DNA from: a virus | Lineage: Duplodnaviria > Caudoviricetes | Length of the DNA: 32,606 nt | IMG/VR virus record: IMGVR_UViG_3300014613_000065 | Location: 1-32,606 of that record | Reading direction: 5' to 3' (one strand) | Shown here: in pieces, positions 8,187 through 31,207 of the stretch | Layout of the letters: each line of letters opens with the position of its first letter | Numbering within the stretch: position 1 is the first letter of the stretch | Translations under genes and position numbers: made by a program | Notes under the pieces: model-generated | What the model was told of the DNA's origin: nothing | Seen by the model: the letters and a program-made list of their open reading frames with translations, nothing else | Database searches by the model: none

Positions 8187-8255
8187 ATGCGATGGAATAA
8201 CTTAGAATTACCAGAACCTTACTATCAGGATGATGCGGTCTATATCATTCATGGG
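8187..8255 (+). pseudogene. Orphaned 5' end of a DNA methyltransferase gene
   Basis: MRWNNLELPEPYYQDDAVYIIHG aligns with KPYFKDDSVAIYNR(DCREIL) of 8809..9606; ends exactly at the LAGLIDADG stop codon. Confidence 0.75.
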
Positions 8256-8759
8256 CTAAATCATGCTTTGTTGGCTAATCCTGTTATCATGAAGCGAGCG
8301 CAATTCTTCAAACAATTTGGTGCGGTAATCTACTACTTCTATCGGGAGAGGGTTAGCACCCTTACGCCCTTTGGACATCCAGCTATACTTGAGCTTGTTA
8401 ATATTCTCCTGCAAAAGCATACAAATCTCTGCCTGTCTCTGCTTCACTTTAAGGAAAGGAAAAAGGTCTTTGGCAATATGGTATGCTTCTTTAGAGGATA
8501 CAGTCCAGTAGTAGTTTGGCCTCCAGCCATTAGTCTTTTCACCTTTCTTTTGCCTAGCTTGGCGCAACCTTACCGCACCTCCAAACTCTTTTGCCAGTAT
8601 ATCAGGAATAATGGAATCCACCTGACAAAATCCTACACCAAGATAGAACGAGAAATTAGCCCTACCGCCACCAGATTCAGGTTTTATTTTACGAATCATA
8701 AACCAACCATCAGAGTCCATAGCACCAGCCAAGTAAGCCTTTTCAATATCATTCAACAT
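8256..8759 (-). CDS. Single-motif LAGLIDADG homing endonuclease
   Basis: EKAYLAGAMDSDGWF; FPFLKVKQRQAEI; own RBS AGGAGGT and promoter. Confidence 0.9.
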   Translation of the reverse strand: MLNDIEKAYLAGAMDSDGWFMIRKIKPESGGGRANFSFYLGVGFCQVDSIIPDILAKEFGGAVRLRQARQKKGEKTNGWRPNYYWTVSSKEAYHIAKDLFPFLKVKQRQAEICMLLQENINKLKYSWMSKGRKGANPLPIEVVDYRTKLFEELRSLHDNRISQQSMI

Positions 8760-8780
8760 ACTACTTTACCTCCTATCTAT

Positions 8781-8809
8781 ATTATATCACAATAATAATG
8801 GAGATACAA
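8781..8809 (-). promoter_or_regulatory. Promoter for the LAGLIDADG gene
   Basis: Minus strand TTGTAT-N17-TATAAT with a TGn extension. Confidence 0.7.
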
Positions 8810-9606
8810 TGGATTTTGAAGAATTAGTAAAAACCATAAACATAAAGCCTTACTTCAAAGATGATTCAGTGGCGATATATAACAGGGATTGTCGTGAGAT
8901 ATTGCCCCAACTTTCCAACATTGAGACTGTTATCACTGACCCTACATGGCCGGATGCGAATGTTAAAATAGTAGGACATGAAAACCCGTATCAGTTATTT
9001 GCCGATATGTGCCGTGTAATCCCGCGGGGGACTGAGCGTCTTATTGTGCAACTTGGCTGTGACAGTGACCCCCGTTTCCTCGGCGGTATCCCCAAAGAAT
9101 GGCCCTTTCTCCGAGTGTGCTGGCTGGACTATGCAAGGCCGTCTTATAAAGGCAGACTGCTCTACACCGGCGACGTGGCTTATGCTTACGGAATACCGCC
9201 GGCGTTCATCAAGGGACGACAGGTAATGAGCGGAATGTGTCGCAGCTCTAGGTCTGACCCAAATAATCTGCGCCACTCGCACAAACCCGGCTCAGGTGGT
9301 GGTAGATGGACGGGACGGGCCGATGAAGACGGTTTGCCCCATCCATGCGCTCGACGACTTCAACACGTCGAATGGCTGGTGCATCAATTCAGCGATAACG
9401 TGGTATGCGACCCGTTCATGGGGAGCGGTACAACATTAGTAGCAGCGAAGTATCTTAACAGGATTTCCATTGGAATAGAAATAAAAGAGGAATATTGTGA
9501 GCTGGCAGTAAAACGATTATCGCAGAGTGTCATGAACTTCACTCAACCGCCTGGCCCCTCCGGTGTGCATCTAATCATCCAGGACGCTCAGGAGAGTAGA
9601 GAATGA
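8809..9606 (+). CDS. N4-C/N6-A DNA methyltransferase, beta-class motif order
   Basis: VITDPTW (DPPY-like), then HPC...DPFMGSGTT...IGIEIKEEYC. Confidence 0.85.
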   Translation: MDFEELVKTINIKPYFKDDSVAIYNRDCREILPQLSNIETVITDPTWPDANVKIVGHENPYQLFADMCRVIPRGTERLIVQLGCDSDPRFLGGIPKEWPFLRVCWLDYARPSYKGRLLYTGDVAYAYGIPPAFIKGRQVMSGMCRSSRSDPNNLRHSHKPGSGGGRWTGRADEDGLPHPCARRLQHVEWLVHQFSDNVVCDPFMGSGTTLVAAKYLNRISIGIEIKEEYCELAVKRLSQSVMNFTQPPGPSGVHLIIQDAQESRE

Positions 9607-9645
9607 AGAAGTACCAGATATATGCTGAAAGGGGAAAATAATAGT

Positions 9646-10392
9646 ATGTCTCGTAAAATAGATGACTCTACATTAGCAGTTTTAAGCAGCGTTACCGTTG
9701 ATGGAAATACCATTGCCTTGAATTGTGGGCAACTAGAGAGGAAGCAATATGTTAACGTAAATAAAATATTAGAGGCAATGGGGGGCAAGTGGAACAGGCA
9801 AACTAAAAGGCATATATTCTTAGATAGTCCTAACGATAAAATTGAAGCCATACTATTAACAGGGGAATATGAAAAACCATCTGATTATGGTTACTTTCCT
9901 ACACCGATGGACTTAGTTGATAAGATGGTGTTTATGGTAGAGTTAACTCCCGATATGGTGGTGCTTGAACCATCCGCCGGGAGAGGGGCAATAGCTGAAA
10001 GGGTAGCAAGAATCGTTGGGCATAATAATGTCCACTGCTTCGAGTTATTACCTGATAACTGTGAAGCCTTAATGAAATATGGGTTTATGAAAACAGAATG
10101 TTGCGATTTTCTTAAGGTTGAACCCAAGCCTCTATATGACCGAGTAATTATGAACCCGCCTTTTGCCAAACAACAGGACATAGACCATGTTGCTCATGCG
10201 CTAAAGTGCCTTAAAAATGGAGGGATGTTAGTTAGTGTTATGTCATCTGGGGTTACTTTTAGACAGGACAGAAAAACTACTGATTTCTTGAACTCAATAA
10301 ACGGGCATAGTGAGATAATCACCAACCCACCTGAAACTTTTAAGTTATCTGGAACATTAGTGAATACAGTAACTATTATTGTTGCCCAATGA
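9646..10392 (+). CDS. N6-adenine DNA methyltransferase-like protein
   Basis: YFPTP, VLEPSAGRG, IMNPPF motifs; start at 9646 after GGGG RBS. Confidence 0.85.
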   Translation: MSRKIDDSTLAVLSSVTVDGNTIALNCGQLERKQYVNVNKILEAMGGKWNRQTKRHIFLDSPNDKIEAILLTGEYEKPSDYGYFPTPMDLVDKMVFMVELTPDMVVLEPSAGRGAIAERVARIVGHNNVHCFELLPDNCEALMKYGFMKTECCDFLKVEPKPLYDRVIMNPPFAKQQDIDHVAHALKCLKNGGMLVSVMSSGVTFRQDRKTTDFLNSINGHSEIITNPPETFKLSGTLVNTVTIIVAQ

Positions 10393-10562
10393 AGTCAATA
10401 GTGATATAGATTTACATAAGGTCATAGGGGAGTGGAGAATGAGCACACAAAACGCCTTGCTGCTGGCCGGCTTAACCTTATTGGCCATATTCTTACTGAT
10501 AACTAAATTGACCGGCTGGTGGTGAACTGAACTAAAAACCTTTGAAAATAGGTCGATAGGTA

Positions 10563-10600
10563 TTGACTTTTAGCAAAAGACTGTATTATAATTGTAATAC
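10563..10600 (+). promoter_or_regulatory. Promoter with overlapping near-palindromic operator
   Basis: TTGACT-N18-TATAAT; GTATTATAA/TTGTAATAC inverted repeat at 10583-10600. Confidence 0.65.
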
Positions 10601-10601
10601 T

Positions 10602-10787
10602 ATGATAAATACAAATTGGGAAACACCAAGAGAGCTACGAACAGTAAATATCATTGTTCGCCTGACACCAGAAGAAAAACAGTCGCTATTCCGAGAAGCT
10701 CAGAAAGCAGGTATCAGTATATCAGCTTTTGTGCGTTTGCTTATGCGAAACTGGGCTGACGGGATTAACTTCTCTAAAAAGGGGTAG
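10602..10787 (+). CDS. Ribbon-helix-helix (CopG/Arc-like) DNA-binding protein
   Basis: IIVRLTPEEKQSL..EAQKAGISISAFVRLL; the ORF-track TTG start is actually the -35 box. Confidence 0.75.
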   Translation: MINTNWETPRELRTVNIIVRLTPEEKQSLFREAQKAGISISAFVRLLMRNWADGINFSKKG

Positions 10788-10789
10788 CT

Positions 10790-11173
10790 GTGCTTAATAC
10801 GGGGATCACAGAGGCCACATTAGAGGCTGAGGAATGTCTCATCGGGTCTATTCTGATAGAATCTGCTACTTATGGGACAAGGCAGTCCATCATCCAAGCC
10901 GTGGAGTATGTGTCCCCGCTTGACTTTTACTCAGAGCAGCATCGAGTTATCTTTGAGGCAATGATAAAATGTCCGAAGCCTCCGCATATCATCAATACAG
11001 CAATGCAGATGCAGTCCGAGGGAACACTAACTCCTAAACTGCCAGCCCACCTTCGCCATTGCATCTCAGTAGTGCCTTGTTCGTTGGACTATCTTGATTA
11101 CGCAAGGGCAGTGAAACAATACAGTGATTCCAGACAAGGAAAAGCAACCCGAACTATCAAAGGGGCGTTATGA
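10790..11173 (+). CDS. Stand-alone DnaB-like helicase N-terminal domain
   Basis: EAEECLIGSIL...DFYSEQHRVIFEAM...YARAVKQYS. Confidence 0.75.
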   Translation: MLNTGITEATLEAEECLIGSILIESATYGTRQSIIQAVEYVSPLDFYSEQHRVIFEAMIKCPKPPHIINTAMQMQSEGTLTPKLPAHLRHCISVVPCSLDYLDYARAVKQYSDSRQGKATRTIKGAL

Positions 11174-12435
11174 CAGAACTGCCAGTCGGCAAGCCAGAAG
11201 TTACTTATGGAATCTACAAAAACACCTTTGAGTGGAAAGACCTTTCTCTCGCAGTAAACGTTGAGAGAATCACCGATGATGGTAAGGCGGAGCTTTATTT
11301 CTACCACATAAATAGCGATGGTAAAAAGCTCCTTCACATGGGCAATGCTAACCTGCTGTCATCCACGATGCAGCGCGAGTTTAAGAAGTCCCTCTCCACC
11401 AGGGGACTTGATGTTGATTGGCAAACACTGTTGACTTATGTTGCCCGGGACACAATGGAACACTTGCGACAGGGTGAACAGATTATTATGCTTGATGCCA
11501 GTTTCGGCAAGTCACCACCGGCCTATCTACTGAGTCCTTTATTTGTGAAAAACGCCGCCAATATAATCTATGCCGACAAGAGCAGCGCAAAAAGTCTATT
11601 TATGACGCTAATTGATATTACCCTCTCACTTCCCTGGTACGAAAACCCTCTCGGCCTGAACATAGCCAAAGACACCCGACATACGGTATTGTTTTTAGAC
11701 TGGGAGAATGATGCCAATATTACCGGCTGGCAAAAGGAATGTATAGTAAGAGGGATGGGCCTTGAATGGTGCGACCTACCGTACCTTCATTGCAGCAGAC
11801 CATTGCATGATAGCATAGAGCATATCAGGAACAAGATAATGGAGATAAGTGCTGATGTGGTTATCGTTGATAGTTTGGGCATGGCAGTCGGGGATGACTT
11901 GAACCTTACGAAGCCAGCGTTCGCCTTTTACGCTGCCCTGCGGCAACTTCCTGTGACTCCCCTTATCATAGCGCATACTTCAAAGGACATAAACAATAAA
12001 AGAAAAACAGTTTACGGCAACGCGTATTATGAAAATGAAGCGCGTTCTGTCTGGGAAGTTTCCAAACAACAAATATCAGGGGATAATCAACTGACCATTA
12101 CCTTATATCATCGCAAGTCTCCGCCATTCTCAGGTTATCACGAACCGTTGGCATGGAGGTTTACTTTTGAGGGAGATAACACCATAGTAGAACTTGACAG
12201 CCCTGTGATAGATGGCAGAGGAACTACAGAGGAACGTTCGGTAGAGGATAAGATAATGGGAATTTTGATGCTATCAAGTAAGCCCATGTCAGCGACAGAC
12301 ATCTTGCAACGAAGTAGAGAAAACAAAGAACCTATAAAAGAGGGTAGCATACGGACAACTCTTGGTAGACTGGTCAAAAAGAGAGAACCCGACATCGCTA
12401 AAGATTTGGAGGGGAAGTATTATTATTTACCGTAG
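11170..12435 (+). CDS. RecA-family (RepA/AAA_25-like) replicative helicase with C-terminal wHTH
   Basis: IIYADKSSAKS (variant Walker A), VLFLDWE, VVIVDS, IIAHTSK, YGNAYYENEARSVW; C-terminal SIRTTLGRL. Confidence 0.75.
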   Translation: MTELPVGKPEVTYGIYKNTFEWKDLSLAVNVERITDDGKAELYFYHINSDGKKLLHMGNANLLSSTMQREFKKSLSTRGLDVDWQTLLTYVARDTMEHLRQGEQIIMLDASFGKSPPAYLLSPLFVKNAANIIYADKSSAKSLFMTLIDITLSLPWYENPLGLNIAKDTRHTVLFLDWENDANITGWQKECIVRGMGLEWCDLPYLHCSRPLHDSIEHIRNKIMEISADVVIVDSLGMAVGDDLNLTKPAFAFYAALRQLPVTPLIIAHTSKDINNKRKTVYGNAYYENEARSVWEVSKQQISGDNQLTITLYHRKSPPFSGYHEPLAWRFTFEGDNTIVELDSPVIDGRGTTEERSVEDKIMGILMLSSKPMSATDILQRSRENKEPIKEGSIRTTLGRLVKKREPDIAKDLEGKYYYLP

Positions 12436-12515
12436 TGTTACCGTTACAACACTACTCCTAAAGGAGTAGTAGTGTGTGTAACGTTACGAAACACAGTGTA
12501 ACGTTACATGTAACA
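12431..12515. repeat. Palindrome/iteron cluster, candidate replication origin
   Basis: ACTACTCCT-aa-AGGAGTAGT (12451-70); GTAACGTTAC at 12478-87 and 12498-507; further GTTAC/GTAAC copies. Confidence 0.6.
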
Positions 12516-12680
12516 GCCAGTGGATTGTGGGCATAGCTTAGGAGTGAGAAGCGAAAGAAATTAAATGTTGTTGTAACGGTTGTGGTGAAATTTGTTGTAA
12601 CGCTCGATTACCGGCCACTTAAAAAGGAGAGGTTGTAGTGGCTATCTTGGTAGGTGATTATAGTTTGAGGGAGGGATAAC

Positions 12681-12869
12681 TTGAACGGGATATTATTCAA
12701 ACCAACTCTAATAAAGGCGATTGTTGAGGGCCGGAAAACGGTTACACGGCGAGTCATAACGCCACAGCCGAGCCACTTCCATTACGCCGCCGATGCTCAA
12801 TACCCCTGTAAACCTGATGGTGAGCAAATACAACCTAAATACCACGTAGGCGAAACAGTGTCAAAATGA
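12681..12869 (+). CDS. ASCH/PUA-like protein, N-terminal half of a split gene
   Basis: [24 protein letters not shown]...PKYHVGETV, then SK*. Confidence 0.75.
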
Positions 12870-12877
12870 AAGTATAC

Positions 12878-12907
12878 TTGACAAACGATGCTATGTTATG
12901 GTAGTAT
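12878..12907 (+). promoter_or_regulatory. Promoter of the NUMOD4-HNH cassette
   Basis: TTGACA-N18-TAGTAT with TGn extension; RBS AGGAGGT follows. Confidence 0.65.
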
Positions 12908-12928
12908 GGCTATAGGAGGTAATATAGC

Positions 12929-13495
12929 ATGAAAGATATTAAGTTACCAAGTGGGGTTTTGTTGAAGCAAATACCCGTTGCTCCGAATGATGATTACATG
13001 GCTGGTTCTGACGGTCAGATATATTCTCGATTTAGATATAAAGGGCAAGGTAAAACACTGTACAGGGATTGGTTTCCTCTCAAATCTTGGCCTGATAAAA
13101 ACGGATGGTATAGGCATGTCACTATTTCGCATAATAATATTAGAATCACGAAATCAGTTCATACATTGGTCTGCATGGCCTTTCATGGAATGAAGCCATT
13201 TCTAGCAGCACAGGTAAGACATCTTAATGGGGATGACCAAAACTCTAAACCGGACAATTTGGCTTGGGGTACTCGTGTCGAAAACTGGGCAGATAGGAGA
13301 ACCAACAGGCAACGTAACGAAGGTGAACAAAATAGTAATTCAAAGTTAACCGACTTTGAAAGAAGTGCTTTAAGATGGGCTATAAACAAAGGATTATGTA
13401 GCCAGCGTCAAGCTGCTAGGGTGACGGGCATGAGTCAAACTTCAATGAAACAAATAGCTCATTCTAAAATAGATTGGGGGTTTGGTAATGGATAA
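12929..13495 (+). CDS. NUMOD4-type HNH homing endonuclease with C-terminal HTH
   Basis: YMAGSDGQIYS; VHTLVCMAFHG...VRHLNGDDQNSKPDNLAWGTRVEN; GEQNSNSKLT; SQRQAARVTGMSQT. Confidence 0.9.
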   Translation: MKDIKLPSGVLLKQIPVAPNDDYMAGSDGQIYSRFRYKGQGKTLYRDWFPLKSWPDKNGWYRHVTISHNNIRITKSVHTLVCMAFHGMKPFLAAQVRHLNGDDQNSKPDNLAWGTRVENWADRRTNRQRNEGEQNSNSKLTDFERSALRWAINKGLCSQRQAARVTGMSQTSMKQIAHSKIDWGFGNG

Positions 13496-13910
13496 AGGCA
13501 TAGTCTATATAAAAGAAGCATGGGCGGCTGAAAAGCAATTTGACCATCTGAAACCGAGAGATATACCACATACGGCCAAAATATTCTACCTAATGGATGG
13601 CTACGACCAATCCACAATGGGCAAAAAGCGTTCCCCATTATTTTTACCAGAGAAGTTTGCCCGTTACCATATCCTGATAACAGGGGTAAGGGCTGAGAGA
13701 ACAAAGAATATTACTCACGAAGATTGTTTACTGGAAGGCATTATCTTTGCTGGTGGGTGCTACTGGACTGCTGAAGATGGCATAGCATTTGATACCTCGC
13801 AAGATGCATACTTCGCCTTATATGACAGCATCAATGGCAAAGGCTCGCATGAGAATAATTGGGATTGGCGGTATGAGTTTAAGTTTACAGGGAGGGATAA
13901 TGGACATTAA
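13488..13910 (+). CDS. ASCH/PUA-like protein, C-terminal half of a split gene
   Basis: MDKGI+VYIKEAW...SPLFLPEKFARYHILITGVRAERTKNITHEDCLLEGI...YDSING...WRYEF. Confidence 0.75.
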   Translation: MDKGIVYIKEAWAAEKQFDHLKPRDIPHTAKIFYLMDGYDQSTMGKKRSPLFLPEKFARYHILITGVRAERTKNITHEDCLLEGIIFAGGCYWTAEDGIAFDTSQDAYFALYDSINGKGSHENNWDWRYEFKFTGRDNGH

Positions 13911-14418
13911 AGAACAGGTGGCAAAGGTAATAGACAAGGTTTTAATGGCTGATATGGTAGACGGTCGTTTCGGTTCAGAACCATACGCTAAAGAAATCCA
14001 CGACCTCTATGCTCCCCTTATAGAGCAGGCAAGGCTACCACCCCCACCAGAGGATAAGGTGGAGGCGGTAGCAAGGTATTTATTCAACATTGAATATGCA
14101 AAAGTGGCCTGGAATGAGCCACAGGATGATGCTTGGCTTAATTGCCCCGTAAGTAGTAGGAAGTTCTGGTATATACCAGCTCGTGAAATCCTCTCCCTGC
14201 TCTCCTCTGTATCACCGGAACTGACGGTGCTGGATAAATTAAAGGTTCTCTTTTGGTTTGACGACGATTCTAAAACTGCGGGTACGCTTGTTACCGGAAG
14301 TGTGATATATAGCTACTTCAAAGAACTAGAAGCCCAACTTGCCCACAACCAAGAGGAACTGAAGGGGGAGAAACATGGAACCCTGGCAATTTATGCAAAA
14401 GCAGAGCCTGCCATATAA
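13900..14418 (+). CDS. Hypothetical mosaic phage protein
   Basis: RBS GGAGG before ATG 13900; MDIKEQVAK...AQLAHN. Confidence 0.55.
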   Translation: MDIKEQVAKVIDKVLMADMVDGRFGSEPYAKEIHDLYAPLIEQARLPPPPEDKVEAVARYLFNIEYAKVAWNEPQDDAWLNCPVSSRKFWYIPAREILSLLSSVSPELTVLDKLKVLFWFDDDSKTAGTLVTGSVIYSYFKELEAQLAHNQEELKGEKHGTLAIYAKAEPAI

Positions 14419-16031: not shown

Positions 16032-16070
16032 ATGCGTATCTTGGCATTGGATCCCGGGACGCACTGTGGA
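16032..16070 (+). pseudogene. ruvC: N-terminal remnant of a RuvC-like Holliday junction resolvase
   Basis: RBS AGGAGG + MRILALDPGTHCG (RNase H-fold first strand with catalytic Asp); frame runs into a promoter and stops at 16103. Confidence 0.7.
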
Positions 16071-16071
16071 C

Positions 16072-16100
16072 TTGACAGCTATCCCTTTAAGGTATATACT
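16072..16100 (+). promoter_or_regulatory. Leaderless-type promoter of the HNH-rusA cassette
   Basis: TTGACA-N17-TATACT, 6 nt, ATG 16107. Confidence 0.85.
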
Positions 16101-16106
16101 TAGAAT

Positions 16107-16235
16107 ATGATAAACATATATAAATGCTTACGATGTGGACACGAATGGGCAGGCAGGCTTAAAAGACCTCCAAAAGTATGCCCTAATCCCAAGTGCAAAT
16201 CACCTTACTGGTTTAGACCTCGGAGGGTAAAATAA
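16107..16235 (+). CDS. 42-aa zinc-ribbon protein
   Basis: Hand-translated MINIYKCLRCGHEWAGRLKRPPKVCPNPKCKSPYWFRPRRVK; TAATG overlap with the HNH gene. Confidence 0.75.
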   Translation: MINIYKCLRCGHEWAGRLKRPPKVCPNPKCKSPYWFRPRRVK

Positions 16236-16753
16236 TGCCTGAGATTGGAGAGATAAGACTTGGTTCTGAGATTGGATATAAACATAACCGCAAGCATATT
16301 TGGCATGCTTGCGAAAAGTGCGGTAAGGAACGATGGGTTAGACTCATAGGGAATAAACCTGTATGTAACAGATGTTTATCATGTAGCAAGATTGGGAACA
16401 ACTATAATTGGAGAGGTGGGCGGGGGAAGAGCGGCGAGGGGTATTTCACATTAAAACTCACACCTGATGACTTTTTTTACCCAATGGCAATGAAATCTGG
16501 TCATGTTCAAGAGCATCGTTTGGTTATGGCTCAATATCTCCAACGTTGCCTATTGCCTTGGGAGATAGTTCATCACAAAGGCACTAAGCATCCTATCGAC
16601 AGCAAGGAAAATAGAGGCGATAACCGAATAGAAAATTTAGAACTCGTGGGGTGCAACGGCAAACACAATAAGTTGGCAGAAAAAGTATTAAGAGGGCAAG
16701 CTAGATTAATTGAAAAGCTGCAAGCCCGAATCAGAGAACTGGAGGCTAGGTAA
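16235..16753 (+). CDS. HNH endonuclease with N-terminal zinc finger
   Basis: CEKCG..CLSC; EHRLVMAQYLQRCLLPWEIVHHK...DNRIENLEL. Confidence 0.9.
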   Translation: MPEIGEIRLGSEIGYKHNRKHIWHACEKCGKERWVRLIGNKPVCNRCLSCSKIGNNYNWRGGRGKSGEGYFTLKLTPDDFFYPMAMKSGHVQEHRLVMAQYLQRCLLPWEIVHHKGTKHPIDSKENRGDNRIENLELVGCNGKHNKLAEKVLRGQARLIEKLQARIRELEAR

Positions 16754-17200
16754 ATGAGAGCCACAATCTATGTTGAGCCTCACGCCAAGGGCAGAGCAAA
16801 GGTCGGTATGTTCGGTGGCCATGCTACGATGTATACGCCCAAGAAGACCCGCCTTGCCGAGGCCGACATTAAGGCTTCTATCCGCAAGGATATTATGGAG
16901 CAGGAGAGATTTAACTCTGGTGAACCACTTGTGTTATGGGCTATATTCTATCGGCAGAAGCCACAGTCTGCTGCCAAGAAGCTAAAACAACCTATAGCAA
17001 GACCTGACCTCGATAATTATTTGAAAACCTTACTCGATGCGCTCAATAAGTTTGCCTACTCTGATGATTCCCAGATAGTAGAAATACACACTAAAAAAGC
17101 CTTTGCAGAGATAGGCACTCCACCTCGAATAGAGTTTACTTTAGATATAAAAGACGACAATCAAGGAGATGCCCTGTTCTTATGGGCCATGGGCGAGTAA
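16754..17200 (+). CDS. rusA: RusA family Holliday junction resolvase with a RuvC-derived tail
   Basis: RPDLDNYLKTLLDALN...DDSQIV; ends in DDNQGDALFLWAMGE. Confidence 0.9.
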   Translation: MRATIYVEPHAKGRAKVGMFGGHATMYTPKKTRLAEADIKASIRKDIMEQERFNSGEPLVLWAIFYRQKPQSAAKKLKQPIARPDLDNYLKTLLDALNKFAYSDDSQIVEIHTKKAFAEIGTPPRIEFTLDIKDDNQGDALFLWAMGE

Positions 17201-18543: not shown

Positions 18544-18960
18544 ATGACGGATGGGGAATGGTTTGCGCCCAGGGAAATCAGGTTTAACAGACGAACAACT
18601 ATATGGCTACTTGAGAACCTGGAGACTCTTCAGTCCGGTATCTGGCCTCCAGAAGCAAGCAACTATATCGACACCAATATAAGAAAAAAGGGAGTCAGCC
18701 GCAGAGCTCCATCTGCAACACCTATAGAGTACGCGGCAGAAATTGAGCAGCGCTTGGAGCGAGCGGGGCTTGACGGTCTAATCTTGGAGGCCATCGAGTG
18801 CTGGGATAGAACTGCGGAATCCCTCTCCAAACAATTGAATATGGCTGAGTGGACAATCTCAAAAAGGCGGAAGCGAGCCTTGAGATTTGTTTCTGGATGG
18901 AGGCGGAAAGGTTCTTATAAAATATGGCAAAGTGGAAGGAATAAATCTATTGAATGCTAG
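18544..18960 (+). CDS. Putative late transcriptional regulator with C-terminal sigma4-like HTH
   Basis: TAESLSKQLNMAEWTISKRRKRALRFV HTH-like segment; position at the end of the early operon (Q/RinA/ArpU-like slot). Confidence 0.55.
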   Translation: MTDGEWFAPREIRFNRRTTIWLLENLETLQSGIWPPEASNYIDTNIRKKGVSRRAPSATPIEYAAEIEQRLERAGLDGLILEAIECWDRTAESLSKQLNMAEWTISKRRKRALRFVSGWRRKGSYKIWQSGRNKSIEC

Positions 18961-19358
18961 CACCTAATGGCTATTCGCTTGGAGGTATATGGGTGGCGAT
19001 GCAGAGATTTGGAATACCTCGTAGAACTAGAAGCGAGCGTGCAAGTGGAGAATTGCACTGGCGATGGCAAGGTGGTAGGAAAAAGCCTCGTAGCGGTTAT
19101 ATTCTACTGTATAGGCCCGACCATCCCAGAGCTGTGAAACGATATGTTCCTGAGCATATTTTGGTTTGGGAAGAGACTCACCACCAGTCTTTGCCAGATG
19201 GTTGGGAAGTTCACCACATTAACGGAATTAAGGATGATAACCGATCTAAAAATCTATTGGGTATGAGGAAAGGTAAGCATAGGCTGATAATACCAGAACT
19301 CCAAAAGCGAATTCAGCAATTGGAAGCTCAATTGAAAAGTCAAGGTCAATTACTTTGA
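18954..19358 (+). CDS. HNH endonuclease
   Basis: GYILLYRPDHPRA..YVPEHILVWE...EVHHINGIKDDNRSKNL. Confidence 0.9.
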   Translation: MLAPNGYSLGGIWVAMQRFGIPRRTRSERASGELHWRWQGGRKKPRSGYILLYRPDHPRAVKRYVPEHILVWEETHHQSLPDGWEVHHINGIKDDNRSKNLLGMRKGKHRLIIPELQKRIQQLEAQLKSQGQLL

Positions 19359-19493
19359 TGGCTTACAACTTCAAAGCGCAAAGGGTGAAACCTACCAGGA
19401 ATTTGAGGATAGGAAGAAGGAATCAGGCAAACCTACTCGAACCTGAATTCCTAAAATATAATTAAAAATAAAGCTAAAAAGCCTGTTTTACTA

Positions 19494-22292: not shown

Positions 22293-23339
22293 ATGACACA
22301 AAAACAGCATACAGATATTCAAAGAAAAATCAAGCTCCGGCAGCAACTCATCGAGAAACTTGGCAAGTTCACCGGGGCTATATATGTGCCGTTTATCGGA
22401 GAGGGTGATATAGCGGTCGCTCTATATAGTGATAATAAGATATATGGTGCCGATATTGACCCTGCTATGGTTGAGACAGCCAAAGCCCGGCTACCGGACG
22501 CCGAGATAATAACTGCCGACTGCGACAAATACCCCTTCAAGAAAAGTGTCGCAACTTTTAACCTGGCAGACTTTGACGCCTATAGTTACCCATATGATTC
22601 CTTTCGTTCCTTCTTTGAGACGGCTAAAATTGGCTCTCAGTGTGCCTTAATTTTTACAGACGGCCAAAGACAGGCGATTATACACACCGGTCACTATAGA
22701 ATGCCTGACGGAAAGAAGCAACATGCCAAAACAGTAACGGAAAAGCGCGATGTCTTTAACTTCTACTTCAATAAGACAATTCTGCCCTGGTTCAAGGACT
22801 ATATAAAGCCATGGCGTATATTATATATAACTAAATATCTCCGGGGTACCAATCAGATATACTGGGGAGCCATCATATCCAAGAACGGTAACGGCAAGAC
22901 TTTACATAATGGAAAAACAGGCGAGGTTGATAGTAACAAATGCAACGATATTAAAAAAGATGCTTACCTCGAATATATAAGAAACGGTCATACACGGGGA
23001 TATGCCGCAACCCTCACTGGCTTAAGCAGGGTAACGATATTCCGCCACATGAAGAAGGATGCGGAGTTTGCCGAGGCAGTCTCTGAGGCAGAGACCGACG
23101 CTATAGCGAAGGTAGAGAACGCCCTATATGAAGCGGCGACGTCCGGCAATGTTACCGCTATACAAGTCTTTCTATATAACAGGGACCCGAAGCGATGGAG
23201 CGACCGGAGAAACATCCAGATAGCCGGTGAAGGTGGTGGGCCGATAAAGGTGGAGCATGACCTATCTGACGAGCAGCTTACCGAAATTATCAATAGAAGC
23301 CGCGGCAGAGGAGCTACTAAAGAGGAGGCAAGCACGTAG
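22293..23339 (+). CDS. terS: SAM-methyltransferase-like domain fused to terminase small subunit
   Basis: YVPFIGEG..YGADID..ADFDAYSYP Rossmann motifs; C-terminal HTH (AATLTGLSRVTIFRHMKKDAEFAEA)...VENALY...AIQVFLYNRDPKRW...GEGGGPIKV. Confidence 0.75.
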   Translation: MTQKQHTDIQRKIKLRQQLIEKLGKFTGAIYVPFIGEGDIAVALYSDNKIYGADIDPAMVETAKARLPDAEIITADCDKYPFKKSVATFNLADFDAYSYPYDSFRSFFETAKIGSQCALIFTDGQRQAIIHTGHYRMPDGKKQHAKTVTEKRDVFNFYFNKTILPWFKDYIKPWRILYITKYLRGTNQIYWGAIISKNGNGKTLHNGKTGEVDSNKCNDIKKDAYLEYIRNGHTRGYAATLTGLSRVTIFRHMKKDAEFAEAVSEAETDAIAKVENALYEAATSGNVTAIQVFLYNRDPKRWSDRRNIQIAGEGGGPIKVEHDLSDEQLTEIINRSRGRGATKEEAST

Positions 23340-25071: not shown

Positions 25072-25073
25072 TC

Positions 25074-26966
25074 ATGCTAGAAACTTTACGCGCTAGGCTA
25101 GCCCTGGCTGTGCTGCCGAGACAGAAGGCCGACAATAGAAACGGCCCCAGCCCATTTCAGATAATTTCTACACAGCCGGCCAATATCCCAGTATATTCAG
25201 ATATGACTGTCAGGAAGTCGACGCGCGAGGGCTACAAGCTCAGCGTCTACGTCTACCGTGCCGTGAGGACTATCATCCAGGCGGCCAGCGCCGTTCCTTG
25301 GGTCGTGCTCGATGACAAAGGGGAACAAATTGAAGATCACCCACTGACCGAAGTCCTGAAGAATCCCAATCCCGTATTCTCCGGACAGGATATGATTGAG
25401 TTTCTGATTGGCCACCTTGAGCTCGTCGGCAACGCATTGTGGCAGCCGATTATAGTAGGAAACAAGGTGAAGGAAATCTGGCCTGTTATGCCCGACTTGG
25501 TACAACCTATTCCGTCAGACGTACCTGGTGAATGGCTTAAAGGCTGGCAGGTAACTGAGGCGAACGGTCGCCTGCAAATCGTAGAACCGAATCGGTTCAT
25601 TCACTTTATGCAGATAGACCCGGGCAATCCCTACTGGGGAATGGGGCCTCTCCTGGCAGCGGCTCGTACCATCGATACCGATAACGAGGCGCAGGATACG
25701 CAGAAGATATCGATGCAGAACCGGGCGACTCCTGACGGAGTATTCACTCACGAGGACATACTGACGCTGGAACAGTTTGAGGAAGCCCGCCGTCAGATAC
25801 GGGAGCAGTATCTAGCCAAGAATAGGCGGCGTGAGCCGTGGGTATTGGGCGCTGGTACAAAATGGAATCAGATGAGTCTTACGCCTGTCGAGATGGACTT
25901 TATAGCGAGCAGACTTGCCAATCTCAGGGGTATAGCCGCAGCCTTCGGCATCGACCCGTGGTGGCTCGGAGACAAGAGTGCCTCGACATACAACAATGTT
26001 GAGGAGGCTCGCAAGGCTCTATATGAGGTGGTTGTGCTCCCGATGCTGGACGATATAAAGGCCACGCTCAATCTCCGGATAGCCCCGATGTACGGGAATA
26101 TAGTCATCGCCTATGATACCTCAAAGGTAGCGGCGCTGAGGGCAGACTACAGCAAGAAGGTAGAGCAAGCCAAGAGCCTATGGAGCATGGGCGTACCATT
26201 CGACAAGATAAACTCAAGGCTAGAGATGGGCTTTGAGGAGTTCCCTGGCTGGGATGTTGGATATTTGCCATTCACCCTGGCGCCTGCTGGGACGAGCGGA
26301 CCCATTGCTCCAGCAGTTGAGGGAGCCGCGGCGGGGGAGCCGATAGAATCGAAGACCTTAACGCCCCGGGACTGGGAAGAGGCGTATAGTGATGACCCGC
26401 CACATTGGGCGGTGGATTTAACCCCGTCGTTATTTGCTCAGGAATTTGCCCAGGAGATGGCAGACCGCAAACTAAAGTCAGTGCTGGAGATAGGTTGCGG
26501 CAATGGTCGAGACTCTATCTTCTTTGCTAGGGCCGGCTTCAAGGTGACCGCCATCGATGTGGCCCCCAGTGCTATTAAGCTGGCGGAGGAAAACACCAAA
26601 GAGGCTGAGGTCACTATAGACTTCCAGGTGGCCAATGCCGAGAAGTTACCGTTTAAGGACGGCGAGTTTGACGCCATGTTTTCCCTGTCAGTGCTGCATG
26701 CCACAAAGCTATCGAAGTCTTTACCCGAAGTCAACCGGGTACTGGCTGATAACGGCCTTGCCTTTGTTTATATATACGGCGATACTGAGTTCGCCAACGG
26801 CCAGCGAGAGGAAGTAATCACCGCCGACAAATACCTTGAGTTGGTTAAAGCCTTGAATTTTATCGTGTTGGACTTCTACTCTGAGCAGGAGACGCAATTC
26901 GACGAATTTGGCGAAAAGCACTTGATACTTGTTTCATTGCTGCAGAAGGCAGGAGAACCGAAATGA
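25074..26966 (+). CDS. HK97-family portal protein fused to a class I SAM-dependent methyltransferase
   Basis: Portal motifs (LVGNALW, YWGMGPL, EMDF, IAAAFGIDP, STYNNVEEA); after a Pro/Ala linker, VLEIGCGNGRDS..VTAIDVAP..AEKLPFKDGEFD from ~26355. Confidence 0.9.
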   Translation: MLETLRARLALAVLPRQKADNRNGPSPFQIISTQPANIPVYSDMTVRKSTREGYKLSVYVYRAVRTIIQAASAVPWVVLDDKGEQIEDHPLTEVLKNPNPVFSGQDMIEFLIGHLELVGNALWQPIIVGNKVKEIWPVMPDLVQPIPSDVPGEWLKGWQVTEANGRLQIVEPNRFIHFMQIDPGNPYWGMGPLLAAARTIDTDNEAQDTQKISMQNRATPDGVFTHEDILTLEQFEEARRQIREQYLAKNRRREPWVLGAGTKWNQMSLTPVEMDFIASRLANLRGIAAAFGIDPWWLGDKSASTYNNVEEARKALYEVVVLPMLDDIKATLNLRIAPMYGNIVIAYDTSKVAALRADYSKKVEQAKSLWSMGVPFDKINSRLEMGFEEFPGWDVGYLPFTLAPAGTSGPIAPAVEGAAAGEPIESKTLTPRDWEEAYSDDPPHWAVDLTPSLFAQEFAQEMADRKLKSVLEIGCGNGRDSIFFARAGFKVTAIDVAPSAIKLAEENTKEAEVTIDFQVANAEKLPFKDGEFDAMFSLSVLHATKLSKSLPEVNRVLADNGLAFVYIYGDTEFANGQREEVITADKYLELVKALNFIVLDFYSEQETQFDEFGEKHLILVSLLQKAGEPK

Positions 26967-27172
26967 GTTGCACATGGGAAAAGAAAAACGGGCGCTGGGT
27001 TTGTCAGGCAAAGGAATGCACACATTGGAGAGAAGATGGTTGTGAACTTGGCAAGGTATCTCTGTCCTGTGATAATTCAGATTGCAAATGGCATATTGAA
27101 ATATCTAACCGCTGTATGTGCATGGATGTTCACCTTGATGCCGATGGTAAGTGCTTAGGAGTTAAGTCGTGA
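26963..27172 (+). CDS. Cys-rich small protein with two internal repeats
   Basis: CQAKECTHW...C and CDNSDCKWH...C; ATGA/GTGA overlaps. Confidence 0.6.
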   Translation: MSCTWEKKNGRWVCQAKECTHWREDGCELGKVSLSCDNSDCKWHIEISNRCMCMDVHLDADGKCLGVKS

Positions 27173-27516
27173 ATCTTAAAAAAGGCACCTCGAATTATAA
27201 AAGGTATATGACTAAATGCTTATCCACCAAGTCTATCAACCTCTCAACTGATGAGCAAAAGACAGCTCACTGGAAGCGGATAGACCGCAGACGTGTAGGC
27301 TGGTGGGGAGTGGTGAACAAGAAAGTATTACCGCTCTATGATGCCGAAGCCAAGGCCGTTGAAAAGGCTATCAAAGGCAAGACACCAGAGCAGCTAGTTG
27401 ATGCAGCCGAAAAGGCTATCAATGCTGGCAGACCTGAATGGGAGAAGATGCTGACCGCTATTTCGATGAGTATCATAGAAGACTTCGGTAATGAAACGGC
27501 AGAGGATTTACAATAA
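27169..27516 (+). CDS. MuF/SPP1-gp7 minor head protein, N-terminal part
   Basis: Helical sequence after the portal gene, ending abruptly (EDFGNETAEDLQ*) 5 nt before a promoter; MuF core follows the insert. Confidence 0.6.
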   Translation: MNLKKGTSNYKRYMTKCLSTKSINLSTDEQKTAHWKRIDRRRVGWWGVVNKKVLPLYDAEAKAVEKAIKGKTPEQLVDAAEKAINAGRPEWEKMLTAISMSIIEDFGNETAEDLQ

Positions 27517-27521
27517 ACCAC

Positions 27522-27550
27522 TTGACAATAAGGGCTGGTTGTTGTAATAT
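27522..27550 (+). promoter_or_regulatory. Leaderless-type promoter of the HNH cassette
   Basis: TTGACA-N17-TAATAT, 6 nt, ATG 27557. Confidence 0.8.
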
Positions 27551-27556
27551 AGAAGT

Positions 27557-27724
27557 ATGGAAAGGATAGATTTACAACAGTTAGCCGAAGAAATCAGGCA
27601 CATGAAGCGCCATCAGCCCTTTTATAGGTTGCTTAAAGCGGAACTAGAGCAGCTTGGTTATTGGAAGAATAGGCAACGAGGAGACCCTGCCAAAGGTTAT
27701 AAAGAGAGGGGTAAAAATGCCTGA
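27557..27724 (+). CDS. 55-aa protein leading the HNH cassette
   Basis: Hand-translated MERIDLQQLAEEIRHMKRHQPFYRLLKAELEQLGYWKNRQRGDPAKGYKERGKNA; overlaps the HNH start. Confidence 0.7.
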   Translation: MERIDLQQLAEEIRHMKRHQPFYRLLKAELEQLGYWKNRQRGDPAKGYKERGKNA

Positions 27725-28304
27725 GATTGGAGAGATTAAACGAGGCAGGGAAATTGGTTATAAAAGCGGGGATAAACATATCTGGATTGCCTGCCAAGAA
27801 TGCGGGAAACAGCGGTGGGTAGTATTTAGAGAGGGATATCCGCAAGCCACTATATGCCGGAGTTGTTCAGCTAAAAGACCTGAACGCTTGGCCAAAGTAT
27901 CACAAAAATTAAAGGGAAGATTTACAGGGATAAAGGCAAGTGGTTGGAAGGGTGGCCGGTACATAGATGATGGTTATATTTTCGTTAGGATTTATCCCGA
28001 TGACTTCTTTTACCCGATGGCTCATAAGAATGGTTATGTTCTTGAGCACCGCCTAGTGGTAGCGAAAGCAATAGGCCGGTGTCTCCATCGCTGGGAGATT
28101 GTTCACCACCTGCACGACAAATATCCTGCGGGAAGTATTGATGACAAGCAGGATAATAGATACCCTGAAAACCTTCAGCTTGTTCAAGAAATGCAACACA
28201 GGCAGATTACCAATCTAGAAAATAGAATCAAATATCTTGAGGAGCGAGTTACGCTATTAGAAGCTGAGAACGTAGTATTAAAGGCAGAGCAAATGACCAT
28301 TTAA
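27717..28304 (+). CDS. HNH endonuclease with N-terminal zinc finger (paralogue of 16235..16753)
   Basis: MPEIGEIK...CQECGKQRWV..CRSC; EHRLVVAKAIGRCLHRWEIVHH...DNRYPENLQL. Confidence 0.9.
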   Translation: MPEIGEIKRGREIGYKSGDKHIWIACQECGKQRWVVFREGYPQATICRSCSAKRPERLAKVSQKLKGRFTGIKASGWKGGRYIDDGYIFVRIYPDDFFYPMAHKNGYVLEHRLVVAKAIGRCLHRWEIVHHLHDKYPAGSIDDKQDNRYPENLQLVQEMQHRQITNLENRIKYLEERVTLLEAENVVLKAEQMTI

Positions 28305-28332
28305 TCATATCTGCCGAGCGTAAAATGGAACT

Positions 28333-28359
28333 AGAGCCGTTCAGAAATGGACGGCTTTT
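28333..28359 (+). terminator. Terminator-like hairpin closing the HNH cassette
   Basis: AGAGCCGTTCA-gaaa-TGGACGGCTTTT; short U-tract. Confidence 0.55.
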
Positions 28360-28378
28360 GCATTGAGGAGATATTTTA

Positions 28379-28846
28379 ATGGTAGAAAAGAAATTCGTGT
28401 TCGACCCGATGAGCGCAGCTATACGAGCTTGGATAGCAAAGAACGGCGCTGCTTCTATTAAAACTATCCTGGCTACTAATCTTGAAGATGTAAAAGGTGT
28501 TATCCTGGCCGGTGTGGATGAGAACCTGACTACCGTGCAGATAGGCCGGAACCTGCGGCAATTCTACACAGATAGGAGTCCCTTCAAAAGTATGCGTGTT
28601 GCTCGAACTGAGACGAGCCATGCTGCGGGATTTTCGCAAAGGGAAGCTGCCAGGCAGTCGGGCGTAGTTAAGACGAAGCAATGGATTTCAAGCCGGGACG
28701 ATAGAGTTCGGGATGAGCATCTGGCTATGGATAGCGACTCTCATTATGAAGCAGTGCCATTTAATGAACCCTATCCGAATGGCGATATGTACCCTGGAGA
28801 GAATTCTATTATGTGCCGATGCGCTGAATCGTACGGGACCAGATAA
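28379..28846 (+). CDS. MuF/SPP1-gp7 minor head protein, C-terminal core
   Basis: RVARTET...KQWISSRDDRVRDEH...YPGE..IMCRC; RBS GAGGAG. Confidence 0.85.
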   Translation: MVEKKFVFDPMSAAIRAWIAKNGAASIKTILATNLEDVKGVILAGVDENLTTVQIGRNLRQFYTDRSPFKSMRVARTETSHAAGFSQREAARQSGVVKTKQWISSRDDRVRDEHLAMDSDSHYEAVPFNEPYPNGDMYPGENSIMCRCAESYGTR

Positions 28847-29367
28847 TGGAACGATTGGTAGACTATAAATATTCCGAGTTGATATCAGCTGGATTCGACA
28901 GGCTACCTCCGGGAATAGCTAATCGATTGCGATATACTCACTTCTTCACGGGTACTGACCCAGTCTATGCGGGCCTGTTTGATTATGATAAAACTGACGA
29001 CGGCAGATCATATCATAATGAATGGTGTGTAGCTTATCCTTATCACCTAACTAAGTTACCCAAGAGGCTTAGGCAGACGACAGTCATAATGCCGGAATTT
29101 GATAAAAGATATCCTGTGATGCTATTACCCATGCTAATAGTCCATGAGCTTGCCCATGTGCTTGATGGGATACTGGGGTTTGACTATATGGCTGAACCAG
29201 TGACGCAGTATGCCGAGACAGACCGGATGGAAGCCTTCGCTGACGCATTTGTACTCTGGCAAAATCCAGGGTATAGGCAGTATTATGATTTAATTCGTAC
29301 GGTAGATGATAGAACATCGAGCCTCTTCAGAGAATTAGAAGAACTGTGGAAAGTAAATATTCAGTAA
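28846..29367 (+). CDS. Zincin-type metallopeptidase
   Basis: VHELAHVLD...QYAETDRMEAFADAF; TAATG coupling to MuF. Confidence 0.75.
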   Translation: MERLVDYKYSELISAGFDRLPPGIANRLRYTHFFTGTDPVYAGLFDYDKTDDGRSYHNEWCVAYPYHLTKLPKRLRQTTVIMPEFDKRYPVMLLPMLIVHELAHVLDGILGFDYMAEPVTQYAETDRMEAFADAFVLWQNPGYRQYYDLIRTVDDRTSSLFRELEELWKVNIQ

Positions 29368-29480
29368 AGTGCATAGAGTGTGGCCAGAAATGTACTAGTT
29401 TTACTGCATACCTTCACATGATTAAAACAGGTCACAATAGATGGACATTATTGTTACCCAGAAAACAGGGAGGTTAAATC

Positions 29481-30011
29481 ATGTTAGAGCGCAAGACAGT
29501 CAACTTTAAGGTCGATAAAATCGATGAGGAGGAGGGAACCTTCACCGGGTATGCTTCAACCTTCAGTGACGTGCCGGATAGCTATGGCGACATAGTTGAC
29601 CCCGGGGCGTTCAAGAAGACCCTGAAAGCGCAGAAGGGGCAGATAGTAAGCCTTTTCAACCACAGCATTATGGAGCCTATAGGCAAACCCACGGAGATGG
29701 CAGAGGATGAGAAGGGGCTGCTAATAAAAGCAAAACTGACCCTCGGTGTCCAGCGGGCAAGGGAAGTTCTCAGCCTGATGAAAGATGGTGTCATTACCCA
29801 GATGTCTATCGGCTATGAAACCATGAAGGAAGTATATACAGATGGCATAAGACACCTGAAGGAGGTCAAACTTTACGACGTTTCGCCTGTGGTTTTCGCT
29901 GCCAATCCCGAAGCTAGGATTGTCGGTGTCAAGTCTAAACAACCAAAAGAGTTTAAGAGTCTTGAAGACTTTTATGAATCTACTGAGGTATGGGAATATG
30001 ATACTGTTTGA
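29481..30011 (+). CDS. HK97-family prohead protease
   Basis: FTGYASTF, DSYGDIV, LFNH, PIG, MSIGY, LYDVSPVVFAANPEA. Confidence 0.95.
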   Translation: MLERKTVNFKVDKIDEEEGTFTGYASTFSDVPDSYGDIVDPGAFKKTLKAQKGQIVSLFNHSIMEPIGKPTEMAEDEKGLLIKAKLTLGVQRAREVLSLMKDGVITQMSIGYETMKEVYTDGIRHLKEVKLYDVSPVVFAANPEARIVGVKSKQPKEFKSLEDFYESTEVWEYDTV

Positions 30012-30540
30012 GAAGGGTCTCAAGTTGGGCGATTCTAGTAATCATATCTGTCAAAACATGGTTTTGCTGAGTAGTAACAAGTTCAAGGTTTGCTGGAATA
30101 TTATTAGTTCTATTGCCATCTTTGTGATGAATATGCTCCCAGCGTTTAAGTGGGCGACCCAACATTTGACTCATTACAAAGCGATGTTCATATACTTCAC
30201 TCCGGCAATCTGCCATAGGACTATCGGGCTTCCAAAGTCTAATATAACCATGAGAGGTATGTCTTATGTGCGGTATTTTAATTCGGCCCTTTTGTTCCCA
30301 AGGAAACTTTCTGACACAATGATTACAACAGCCCGTAAAAACTTTATGTTCATTTCTTTTATCAAACTGATGGACTGCAACCCATCTATCCTGTCCACAA
30401 CTACCACAAGTTACAAGAATGGCAAGCCTATTTTCTCTACCTCCCATAATTTGGTGGCAAATTGTATCCCAATGGAGAACAGAACCAGTTATTTTGATAA
30501 CTTCATCGCCAAACGGTCTTTGTTTTCTCGGTTGTGCCAT
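29980..30540 (-). CDS. HNH endonuclease, inverted orientation
   Basis: CGSCG..CNHC; YEHRFVMSQMLGRPLKRWEHIHHKDGNRTNNIPANLEL. Confidence 0.9.
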   Translation of the reverse strand: MAQPRKQRPFGDEVIKITGSVLHWDTICHQIMGGRENRLAILVTCGSCGQDRWVAVHQFDKRNEHKVFTGCCNHCVRKFPWEQKGRIKIPHIRHTSHGYIRLWKPDSPMADCRSEVYEHRFVMSQMLGRPLKRWEHIHHKDGNRTNNIPANLELVTTQQNHVLTDMITRIAQLETLLKQYHIPIPQ

Positions 30541-30561
30541 TTTATTTCACCCCTTGATATT

Positions 30562-30590
30562 ATTATACCATACTTTAAAGAACAATGCAA
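30562..30590 (-). promoter_or_regulatory. Promoter for the inverted HNH gene
   Basis: Minus strand TTGCAT-N17-TATAAT with TGn extension; RBS AGGGGTG. Confidence 0.75.
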
Positions 30591-30604
30591 TAGGAGGTTG
30601 TACA

Positions 30605-31207
30605 ATGCCATATCCGCAAGAACATAGTTGTAGAATTTCCCCTCCTGAAAATTACGAGAAATTCAGGAGGGGTAAACGTAAACACGAAGGTAAAGAATAT
30701 AGTGTTATTTACGGTAAGCTGAAGGATGAGAATAAGTGGGAAGACCAAGCCTTCCGCTACGACAAAGAGGTGTGGGAGGCAGACGACGCCAAAACTCACT
30801 GCAAAGACCACGATGGTACATTTGAAGCTGCTACTGATACTGAAAAGACTCTTGTCTTTGCCAACCAAGCTAAGATGGCGCTTGCTGCCATCGAAACGGC
30901 GCTTGCTGCCGTTAAGGACTTGGTTACCCGTATTGAGGCGCTTGCTGCCTTGAGGCGGAAGGAAGGCAGGGTATTCTCTAATACCAACCGTAGATTGCTT
31001 GCTGATTTACGGGAGGAAATTCTAAAGGTGGCTAAAGTTATAGATGAGCTACTTGAGGCCACAAAGCCGGAGGATGGGAACGAAGATGGGGAGAAGATGA
31101 CATCGCTCGCCTTAATTGTTTCTGGACTCAAGGCCGAGAACGAAGGTTTCGATATTAAACAGGCCGAGGGCCGCATCGAAGCCAAACTTGAGCAACTGAG
31201 AAAATAA
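30605..31207 (+). CDS. Detached C-terminal region of the prohead protease/scaffold
   Basis: RBS AGGAGG + ATG; PYPQEHSCRI...CKDHDGTFEAA domain and KEGRVFSNTNRRLL helix, recalled as protease C-terminal extensions. Confidence 0.65.
   Translation: MPYPQEHSCRISPPENYEKFRRGKRKHEGKEYSVIYGKLKDENKWEDQAFRYDKEVWEADDAKTHCKDHDGTFEAATDTEKTLVFANQAKMALAAIETALAAVKDLVTRIEALAALRRKEGRVFSNTNRRLLADLREEILKVAKVIDELLEATKPEDGNEDGEKMTSLALIVSGLKAENEGFDIKQAEGRIEAKLEQLRK

Follow-up and report, generated by a model that had tools for sequence, protein, structure and literature searches.

Homing endonucleases gain most when they reside inside the conserved sequence that they target, a position for which an intron or intein is usually deemed necessary. 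The locus described here raises the question of how six endonuclease genes can lie inside other genes of one small phage, and what becomes of the genes that they interrupt. The phage is IMG/VR record IMGVR_UViG_3300014613_000065 (Caudoviricetes), a complete 32.6-kb viral contig that we analysed over its full 32,606 nucleotides and call the window; its terminase, portal, MuF, S78 protease and capsid genes were identified. The initial annotation, made from the sequence alone, had proposed that six endonuclease cassettes (here C1 to C6) each sit inside one gene and offset the damage in one of four ways, and an open reading frame (ORF) check of the window confirmed all six endonucleases where they had been placed.

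Six interrupted genes and four layouts

The flanks of each cassette are parts of one gene. Whole relatives, in which the gene is a single ORF, were recovered for all six host genes: a methylase (C1), an ASCH-fold gene (C2), a RuvC-like gene (C3), a Q/sigma-like regulator (C4), MuF (C5) and the prohead protease (C6). An empty (unbroken) cognate allele therefore exists for six of six cassettes. The four layouts also proved correct, namely a stop plus restart (C2, C5 and C6), a replacement start (C1), a replacement end (C4) and a substitute gene (C3). C2, C5 and C6 each present two ORFs with separate starts that derive from one ancestral ORF, as in the mobE-type insertion of phage Aeh1. At C4 there is an in-frame foreign terminus, with the native terminus displaced past the nuclease, as in hybrids of the mobile ORF (mORF) type, and C1 is the mirror image of this arrangement. 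The downstream parts are open, and each has either a ribosome-binding site (RBS) resembling a Shine-Dalgarno (SD) sequence or a start that is coupled to, or overlaps, the nuclease stop. Host functions are thus likely, judging from the sequence, to survive at the level of DNA and translation through signals supplied by the insert. Taken as a whole, the window is probably best explained by parallel insertions of unrelated nucleases, a survival filter, and later homing of the repaired cassette, for which C2 gives the best support.

C2: a split ASCH-fold gene whose restart is encoded in the nuclease

The features of C2 (refined limits 12861-13505) are as follows.

12681..12869, plus strand: N-half of an ASCH-fold protein, ending ..GETV, then a 2-residue new tail and stop
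12870..13495, plus strand: promoter TTGACA (12878), RBS and HNH_3 nuclease (12929-13495); the restart's SD-like run and ATG lie within the final nuclease codons
13488..13910, plus strand: C-half of the ASCH-fold protein with new start MDKGIV; the host frame is joined at 13506, and relatives enter the window at 13505

The two halves, which break off at ..GETV and resume at YIKEAW, are uninterrupted in relatives L014 and L198. The whole host protein has a predicted ASCH fold (predicted local distance difference test score, pLDDT, 92), and Pfam ASCH is found in 4 of 18 members; the best Foldseek matches are ASCH structures, with E-values of 2e-3 to 2e-2 and none below 1e-3. The split point is the start of strand 75-79 of this single predicted fold, so that function would require complementation between the two fragments.

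There are 27 non-self homologues of the host protein (77-245 aa), comprising 19 whole proteins, 7 stand-alone C-halves and 1 fragment. All seven C-halves begin at the window's site with a similar non-native start. Tree and topology tests were based on 29 rows (8 split and 21 whole alleles, with the fragment left out). Over the first 54 residues the similarity among split alleles is 78%, and beyond them it is 37%; the whole alleles give 44% and 42%. Grouping of the split alleles in a single clade is rejected by the approximately unbiased test with the distal residues (p-AU 6.6e-9) but not with the proximal ones (0.10). In its distal part the window's protein falls among whole alleles, to which it is 70-75% identical. 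Eight homologues of the nuclease are 72-83% identical to it. Among the 119 nuclease homologues listed, 7 carry a (D/E)WG tail, and all 7 belong to those 8. In the window, the restart's SD-like run and ATG are written in the codons of this tail; the nuclease ends in NG there, as it does in 4 homologues. Three pairs of nuclease and half-gene (P0004/P0034, P0011/P0035 and P0151/P0038) have equal longest-contig sizes (7141, 6099 and 32244). The window C-half retains 34 of 35 conserved columns.

From this sequence pattern we infer that C2 is a mobile cassette made up of a stop, a promoter, the nuclease and the restart, and that roughly 50 codons of flank travel with it; it likely spreads between phages with the restart codon inside the nuclease tail. 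Homing had initially been assumed for all six cassettes. A homing-type co-conversion signature, read from proteins only, is present for C2 and would fit its spread into unrelated allele backgrounds; there is a hint of such spread for C4, where homing is weakly indicated, C5 has one further split, and homing is not indicated for cassettes other than C2 and C4.

Replaced termini and a substitute gene at C1, C3 and C4

The features of C1 (refined limits 8256-8886 at least) are as follows.

8187..8255, plus strand: abandoned 23-codon N-terminal stub of a DNA methylase with its own RBS, identified from the sequence, the relatives and the whole gene in L020
8256..8759, minus strand: LAGLIDADG endonuclease, antisense, identified by ORF and profile; TGnTATAAT and AGGAGG lie in 8760-8808, the promoter being assigned by eye
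8809..9606, plus strand: N6/N4 methylase with a replacement N-terminus; new RBS, ATG at 8809, and a D-C-R-E motif rejoined at 8887

The host methylase is one whole ORF in L020. Contigs of relatives diverge from the window at 8255 and pass to D-C-R-E in three runs (3, 6 and 3 contigs), and 2 contigs do so at 8253 in a fourth. The read depth of relatives over the methylase is high on the stub and the far 3' part, with scarcely any in the middle, which suggests that most of the methylase was imported with the cassette.

The features of C3 (refined limits 16071-17149) are as follows.

16032..16103, plus strand: 13-codon RuvC-like stub, recognised by comparison with relatives, which reads on through the promoter of the cassette (TTGACA at 16072) to a stop
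16107..16753, plus strand: 42-aa Zn-ribbon ORF, then HNH nuclease (16235-16753), from ORFs and profiles
16754..17200, plus strand: RusA resolvase, the replacement gene, which at about 17150 joins what remains of the RuvC C-terminus; this remnant has a 1-nt insertion at 17187

The RuvC-like host gene is unbroken in L016 and L020. Its 13 N-terminal and about 17 C-terminal codons remain around the cassette, and about 110 codons are lost. RusA is joined to a RuvC tail in L005 as it is here. The insertion at 17187, which falls in the RuvC remnant, is not found in relatives; displaced host-gene remnants decay, while the downstream halves stay open. A variant of the C3 nuclease in run X3 has four differences in 16465-16692 (two silent and two conservative).

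The features of C4 (donor segment about 18731-19367, including the foreign 3' half of the host gene) are as follows.

18544..18960, plus strand: Q/sigma70-r4-like regulator that matches L005 at 91% identity as far as about 18731 and continues with a foreign 3' half (L008-type end)
18954..19358, plus strand: HNH nuclease overlapping the host stop, identified by ORF and HNH profile
19369..19446, plus strand: displaced native C-terminus without a start, 73% identical to the L005 C-terminus

The C4 host gene, which may be a regulator of the Q/sigma70-r4 type (the identity is a lead), was found in 25 of 50 related records, and is unbroken in L005, L007, L009, L010 and L020. In L161 a member of this gene family carries, antisense within its 5' end, the nuclease most similar to that of C4 (58%). 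The sequences at C4 weakly suggest homing.

C5, C6 and the portal-MuF region

The features of C5 (refined limits 27511-28378) are as follows.

27169..27516, plus strand: MuF N-part, ending ..EDLQ and stop, by comparison with relatives
27517..28378, plus strand: TTGACA promoter (27522), 55-aa ORF, HNH nuclease (27717-28304), hairpin and RBS, from ORFs and sequence
28379..28846, plus strand: MuF C-part with a new start, the linker (about 10 residues) having been lost or replaced

MuF is unbroken in L002, L003, L004, L009 and L183, and the split falls in a variable linker. A MuF N-part with identical ends recurs in P0030 (67% identity).

The features of C6 (refined limits 29934-30604) are as follows.

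29481..30011, plus strand: S78 prohead protease domain, complete and followed from 29934 by a tail of 25 new residues, by profile and relatives
29980..30540, minus strand: HNH nuclease, antisense; TGnTATAAT and an SD sequence lie in 30541-30604, the promoter being assigned by eye
30605..31207, plus strand: former C-terminal part of the protease gene, restarted by AGGAGG and ATG, from relatives and sequence

The protease gene is unbroken in L002, L003 and L009. The split is at the end of the S78 domain, and in the fused form similarity to the proteases of cultured phages is confined to residues 1 to about 190.

Upstream of C5 there is an additional insert that carries no nuclease.

25074..27172, plus strand: portal fused to an S-adenosylmethionine (SAM)-methyltransferase domain, plus a 69-aa Cys-rich ORF; portal-MuF is one ORF in relatives

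The same methyltransferase module reappears in L005 (7032-8044), fused to another head-region gene. The portal-MuF fusion gene of L003 appears, by eye, to carry an in-frame insert of the intein type with a LAGLIDADG-like region (about 1560-2840). A gene of the head-tail region in L147 (about 6230-7600) also has an apparent in-frame intein-type insert, and lies beside two HNH genes.

Nucleases of several lineages

All six nucleases belong to homing-endonuclease families. That of C1 (8759-8256) is a single-motif LAGLIDADG protein (I-MsoI/I-CreI match, E 8e-7), and those of C2 to C6 match HNH families in PHROGs (five of the six). Only C3 and C5 are close paralogues, at 44%. No common cassette ends or terminal repeats were present among the repeats listed for the window. 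The idea of one family of cassettes is therefore not supported, the nucleases being of several lineages, and a single mobile-element family resembling insertion sequences is rejected because the repeats listed include no common ends or terminal repeats and there is no common enzyme. A search for a viral relative of the C1 nuclease found none, and an HNH profile search of the PDB gave no meaningful relative. Evidence of targeting or persistence comparable to that for C4 and C5 was not found for C1, the C3 nuclease or C6. One 42-kb phage record (G028; L238, L246 and L249-L251) has five single-motif LAGLIDADG-like genes.

Recurrence in related phages

The C3/C5 nuclease family has 527 matching viral stretches, and about 3000 metagenome stretches are estimated. 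We collected 162 distinct HNH sites, of which 121 had both flanks of at least 250 nt and 99 had a usable nearby homologue; exclusion of the window's 3 left 96. Nine of these score at least 50, and all nine were upheld by eye; L146, with a score of 47, is a tenth. As controls, 175 non-HNH ORFs gave 155 testable cases, 107 after removal of shadow ORFs and 14 unrelated loci, and 90 with a match. None of 89 controls was flagged (Fisher p 0.003), or 1 of 90 if one antisense shadow ORF is counted (p 0.019). A first control comparison had been swamped by antisense shadow ORFs (18/131 at score ≥55). The intragenic rates are lower bounds, since the test caught just two of the three window sites. Intragenic placement of HNH genes is thus enriched, yet it is a minority state, and six intragenic nucleases in one phage are unusual.

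The intragenic cases take several forms. In L138 an HNH gene (1797-2357) splits the terminase large subunit by a stop and an overlapping restart, with about 20 residues lost and no Rfam intron match; in L044 a nuclease-like gene is split; and L111 and L146 have duplicated C-termini. Abandoned N-termini occur at L161, L131, L196 and L150, the last three lying behind an overlapping upstream gene and being weaker cases. One gene (phrog_2045), which we take to be DUF5131-like, is split at the same site in L101 and L193.

Proposed origin and spread of the cassettes

The proposed course of events has three steps. A normally intergenic nuclease module (promoter, often a small ORF, and nuclease) would first enter a gene by nick- or break-induced recombination with one illegitimate end and, in many cases, one homologous end, so that part of a foreign allele is imported and a stub is left. 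Of the products, only those still yielding a working protein would persist. Lastly, and with most support at C2, a nuclease inside its own target would disrupt that site, with the flanks providing homology on both sides, and the whole cassette with its repair signals would home into empty alleles with a short co-conversion tract.

A broader form of this reading makes self-repairing intron-less homing cassettes a general evolved strategy in uncultured phages. In that form the C2 tail would exist to spell the restart, the two ASCH chains would complement one another, the cassette would home into divergent alleles, and terminase, MuF and protease genes would be occupied likewise; we put this at slightly under an even chance. 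The generality claimed initially is upheld insofar as intragenic cassettes recur in related phages, and is limited by modules that are usually intergenic there, by the position of C6 and by the existence of a split that has no nuclease.

Several observations weigh against the stepwise scheme. Of the 96 related HNH sites, 86 are without an intragenic signal, and the controls were filtered only once a first comparison had been inspected. Ten of 50 records contain LAGLIDADG relatives, and the 15 sites viewed, out of 16, looked intergenic. Searches found no second occupied allele for C1 or C6. The C6 insertion sits at a natural domain boundary, and its downstream domain has stand-alone look-alikes (leads only). 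A nuclease-free methyltransferase insert separates portal from MuF, so not every split requires a nuclease. For C2, pairing of nuclease and half-gene outside the window is taken from contig sizes and protein ends, not from DNA context; 5 whole alleles have a split-type proximal part at 65-74%, the ASCH family being mosaic in general; and 3 of the 8 split C-halves are more eroded (25-29 of 35 columns). ASCH-like genes are present in 6 of 50 records, RuvC-like genes in 2 and RusA in 2, many of the records being fragments; these genes are accessory, and repair there may lack strong selection.

The alternative that survives best is a survivor filter alone, in which phage mosaicism (illegitimate or homeologous recombination) scatters promoter-bearing modules and the viable products persist, with the nuclease uninvolved in targeting or spread. 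Modules of the same kind, with promoter, small ORF and HNH gene, are indeed intergenic in L176, L169, L064, L113, L040 and L042; the phage encodes a RecT-like protein (4896-6182) that suits such a process; and the portal-MuF insert and the C6 boundary are both of the kind expected from it. This process may well account for the first step of every event and for all of C3, C5 and C6. As a complete account we consider it unlikely, given the excess of intragenic HNH sites over controls (9/96 vs 0/89), the presence of the C2 cassette in unrelated distal backgrounds with nuclease and proximal tract conserved, and the recurrence of related nucleases within one host gene, as with the C4 gene (L161) and the DUF5131-like gene (L101 and L193).

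Improbable, in our view, is that some or all of the interrupted genes are dead and their restarts incidental. The scarcity of ASCH-like and resolvase genes in related records, the complementation required at C2 and the three eroded halves elsewhere would all fit. Against this, the downstream halves are open with conserved residues kept, while displaced remnants decay (as with the frameshift at 17187); the same splits persist in divergent phages; and the S78 protease domain is complete. In addition, at least half of the window's sampled words are present in 10 sequencing runs, all labelled groundwater, 4 of which may be the phage's source. A host search by way of the terminase gave one irrelevant match.

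The last alternatives concern splicing. From C1 to C6 the cassettes contain 49, 59, 2, 20, 114 and 67 non-coding bases. An Rfam scan of the window at E≤1 gave no intron (its 1 match was unrelated and far below cut-off), and a scan of 8 related loci gave none. A group I intron is rejected on these grounds and because host codons are lost at C3, C5 and C6. A group II intron is rejected because in-frame GUGYG...AY ends are missing at six of six junction windows and no reverse transcriptase was found in 46 scanned ORFs, and an intein because the host frame is broken by stops at all six cassettes. The original observation that there is no recognisable intron and no in-frame intein therefore holds. 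The nucleases of C1 and C6 are also antisense to their host genes. A loose intron-motif scan gave one match, inside the C1 ORF, and U/G-type in-frame joins exist by chance near every junction, which makes a scan for them uninformative. Contigs of one RNA library cross the C2 left junction and both C3 junctions unspliced with zero mismatches; this evidence is weak because the contigs may be DNA and only some joints are shown. There was no splice joint among the joints listed, and no contig joint skipping C5 or C6 in 4 runs, where missing cover is no evidence; runs with a small share of phage words were excluded from the contig analysis. Removal of the cassettes at the RNA level by an unrecognised intron type, or their bypass by the ribosome, is very improbable: precise excision is possible for C2 (which has a 3-nt shared AGT) and C1, and the RNA data are thin, but excision would not restore the allele at C3, where the RuvC codons are gone, or at C5 and C6, where linker codons are, and conserved new starts would be pointless.

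Comparison with known non-splicing insertions

Published non-splicing splits comprise mobE in nrdA (Aeh1), mobA splitting topoisomerase 39/60 (T4), and seg43(25) in gene 43 (PMC2988022); for the split nrdA of Aeh1, functional assembly was demonstrated and a possible general mechanism was proposed (PMC3045599). In fungal mitochondria, mORFs bring foreign C-termini, with four in one mitochondrial genome, and the hybrids include Allomyces atp6 and Glomus atp6, atp9, cox2 and nad3 (PMC3630166). The ShiLan domain is a non-splicing homing HNH within actinobacteriophage methylases (PMC11855218). The general non-splicing solution, phage splits and terminus replacement have thus been published before (PMC3045599, PMC2988022, PMC3630166), and the description of the cassettes as a new "third route" to neutral homing is consequently not supported.

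The feature is real, and works like the known non-splicing nuclease insertions. As in the Aeh1 and T4 splits (PMC2988022, PMC3045599), a free-standing nuclease lies in a gene, there is no splicing, and two parts with new tails would be translated separately. Those splits are isolated and transposition-like, whereas the window has six in 23 kb, head genes included; unlike them, the C2 split is shared by 8 divergent alleles, and the tail of its nuclease encodes the restart. Assembly of the parts was demonstrated for Aeh1 and is conjectural for the window's halves. The mORF hybrids (PMC3630166) resemble C4, L111 and L146, in which a foreign terminus arrives with the nuclease and the native one becomes a leftover. 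The present cases differ in being phage-borne and mostly HNH, in having a 5' mirror image (C1, L161, L131, L196 and L150), and, for one window case, in having a non-homologous substitute gene (RusA inside ruvC). The intronless homing of T4 Seg/Mob and Skunavirus HNH nucleases (PMC2988022, PMC12724721) likewise involves free-standing genes and co-conversion of flanking DNA, but these genes are intergenic and their products cut hundreds of bases away, whereas the window nucleases are within the host gene. ShiLan (PMC11855218) is similar in that a homing HNH is inside a phage gene as neither intron nor intein; its insert leaves the host frame open, whereas the window's host frames stop and restart or are replaced.

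What is new is the occurrence of six events in four layouts in one small phage, their recurrence across the lineage, and a self-encoded restart that splits a single fold and bears a homing signature. Excerpts of the open-access literature surveyed, with supplements outside the scope, held no description of a restart within a nuclease tail, or of this lineage. If restart and replacement cassettes do the job of an intron or intein and then home, split and chimeric phage genes would be expected rather than being rare accidents. Gene fission and allele chimerism could arise by this route, and many of the gene calls regarded as "fragmented" in viromes would represent real, functional genes. With 8 split alleles, 21 whole alleles and 8 close nuclease homologues, the C2 set allows the long-standing Aeh1 proposal to be tested directly.

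Other features of the window

A seventh HNH gene (2043-2414) is intergenic; together with a 182-aa ORF and its own TTGACA promoter it occupies about 1880-2970, and a 12-bp direct repeat flanks the segment. Several cassettes have their left edge at, or at most 20 nt from, a TTGAC -35 box (16072, 27522 and 12878, and about 3950 in L193), which would fit a module whose boundary is set by the promoter. An N-terminal methyltransferase-like domain is present in the gene at the small-terminase position, both in the window (22293-23339) and in L009 (9335-10405).

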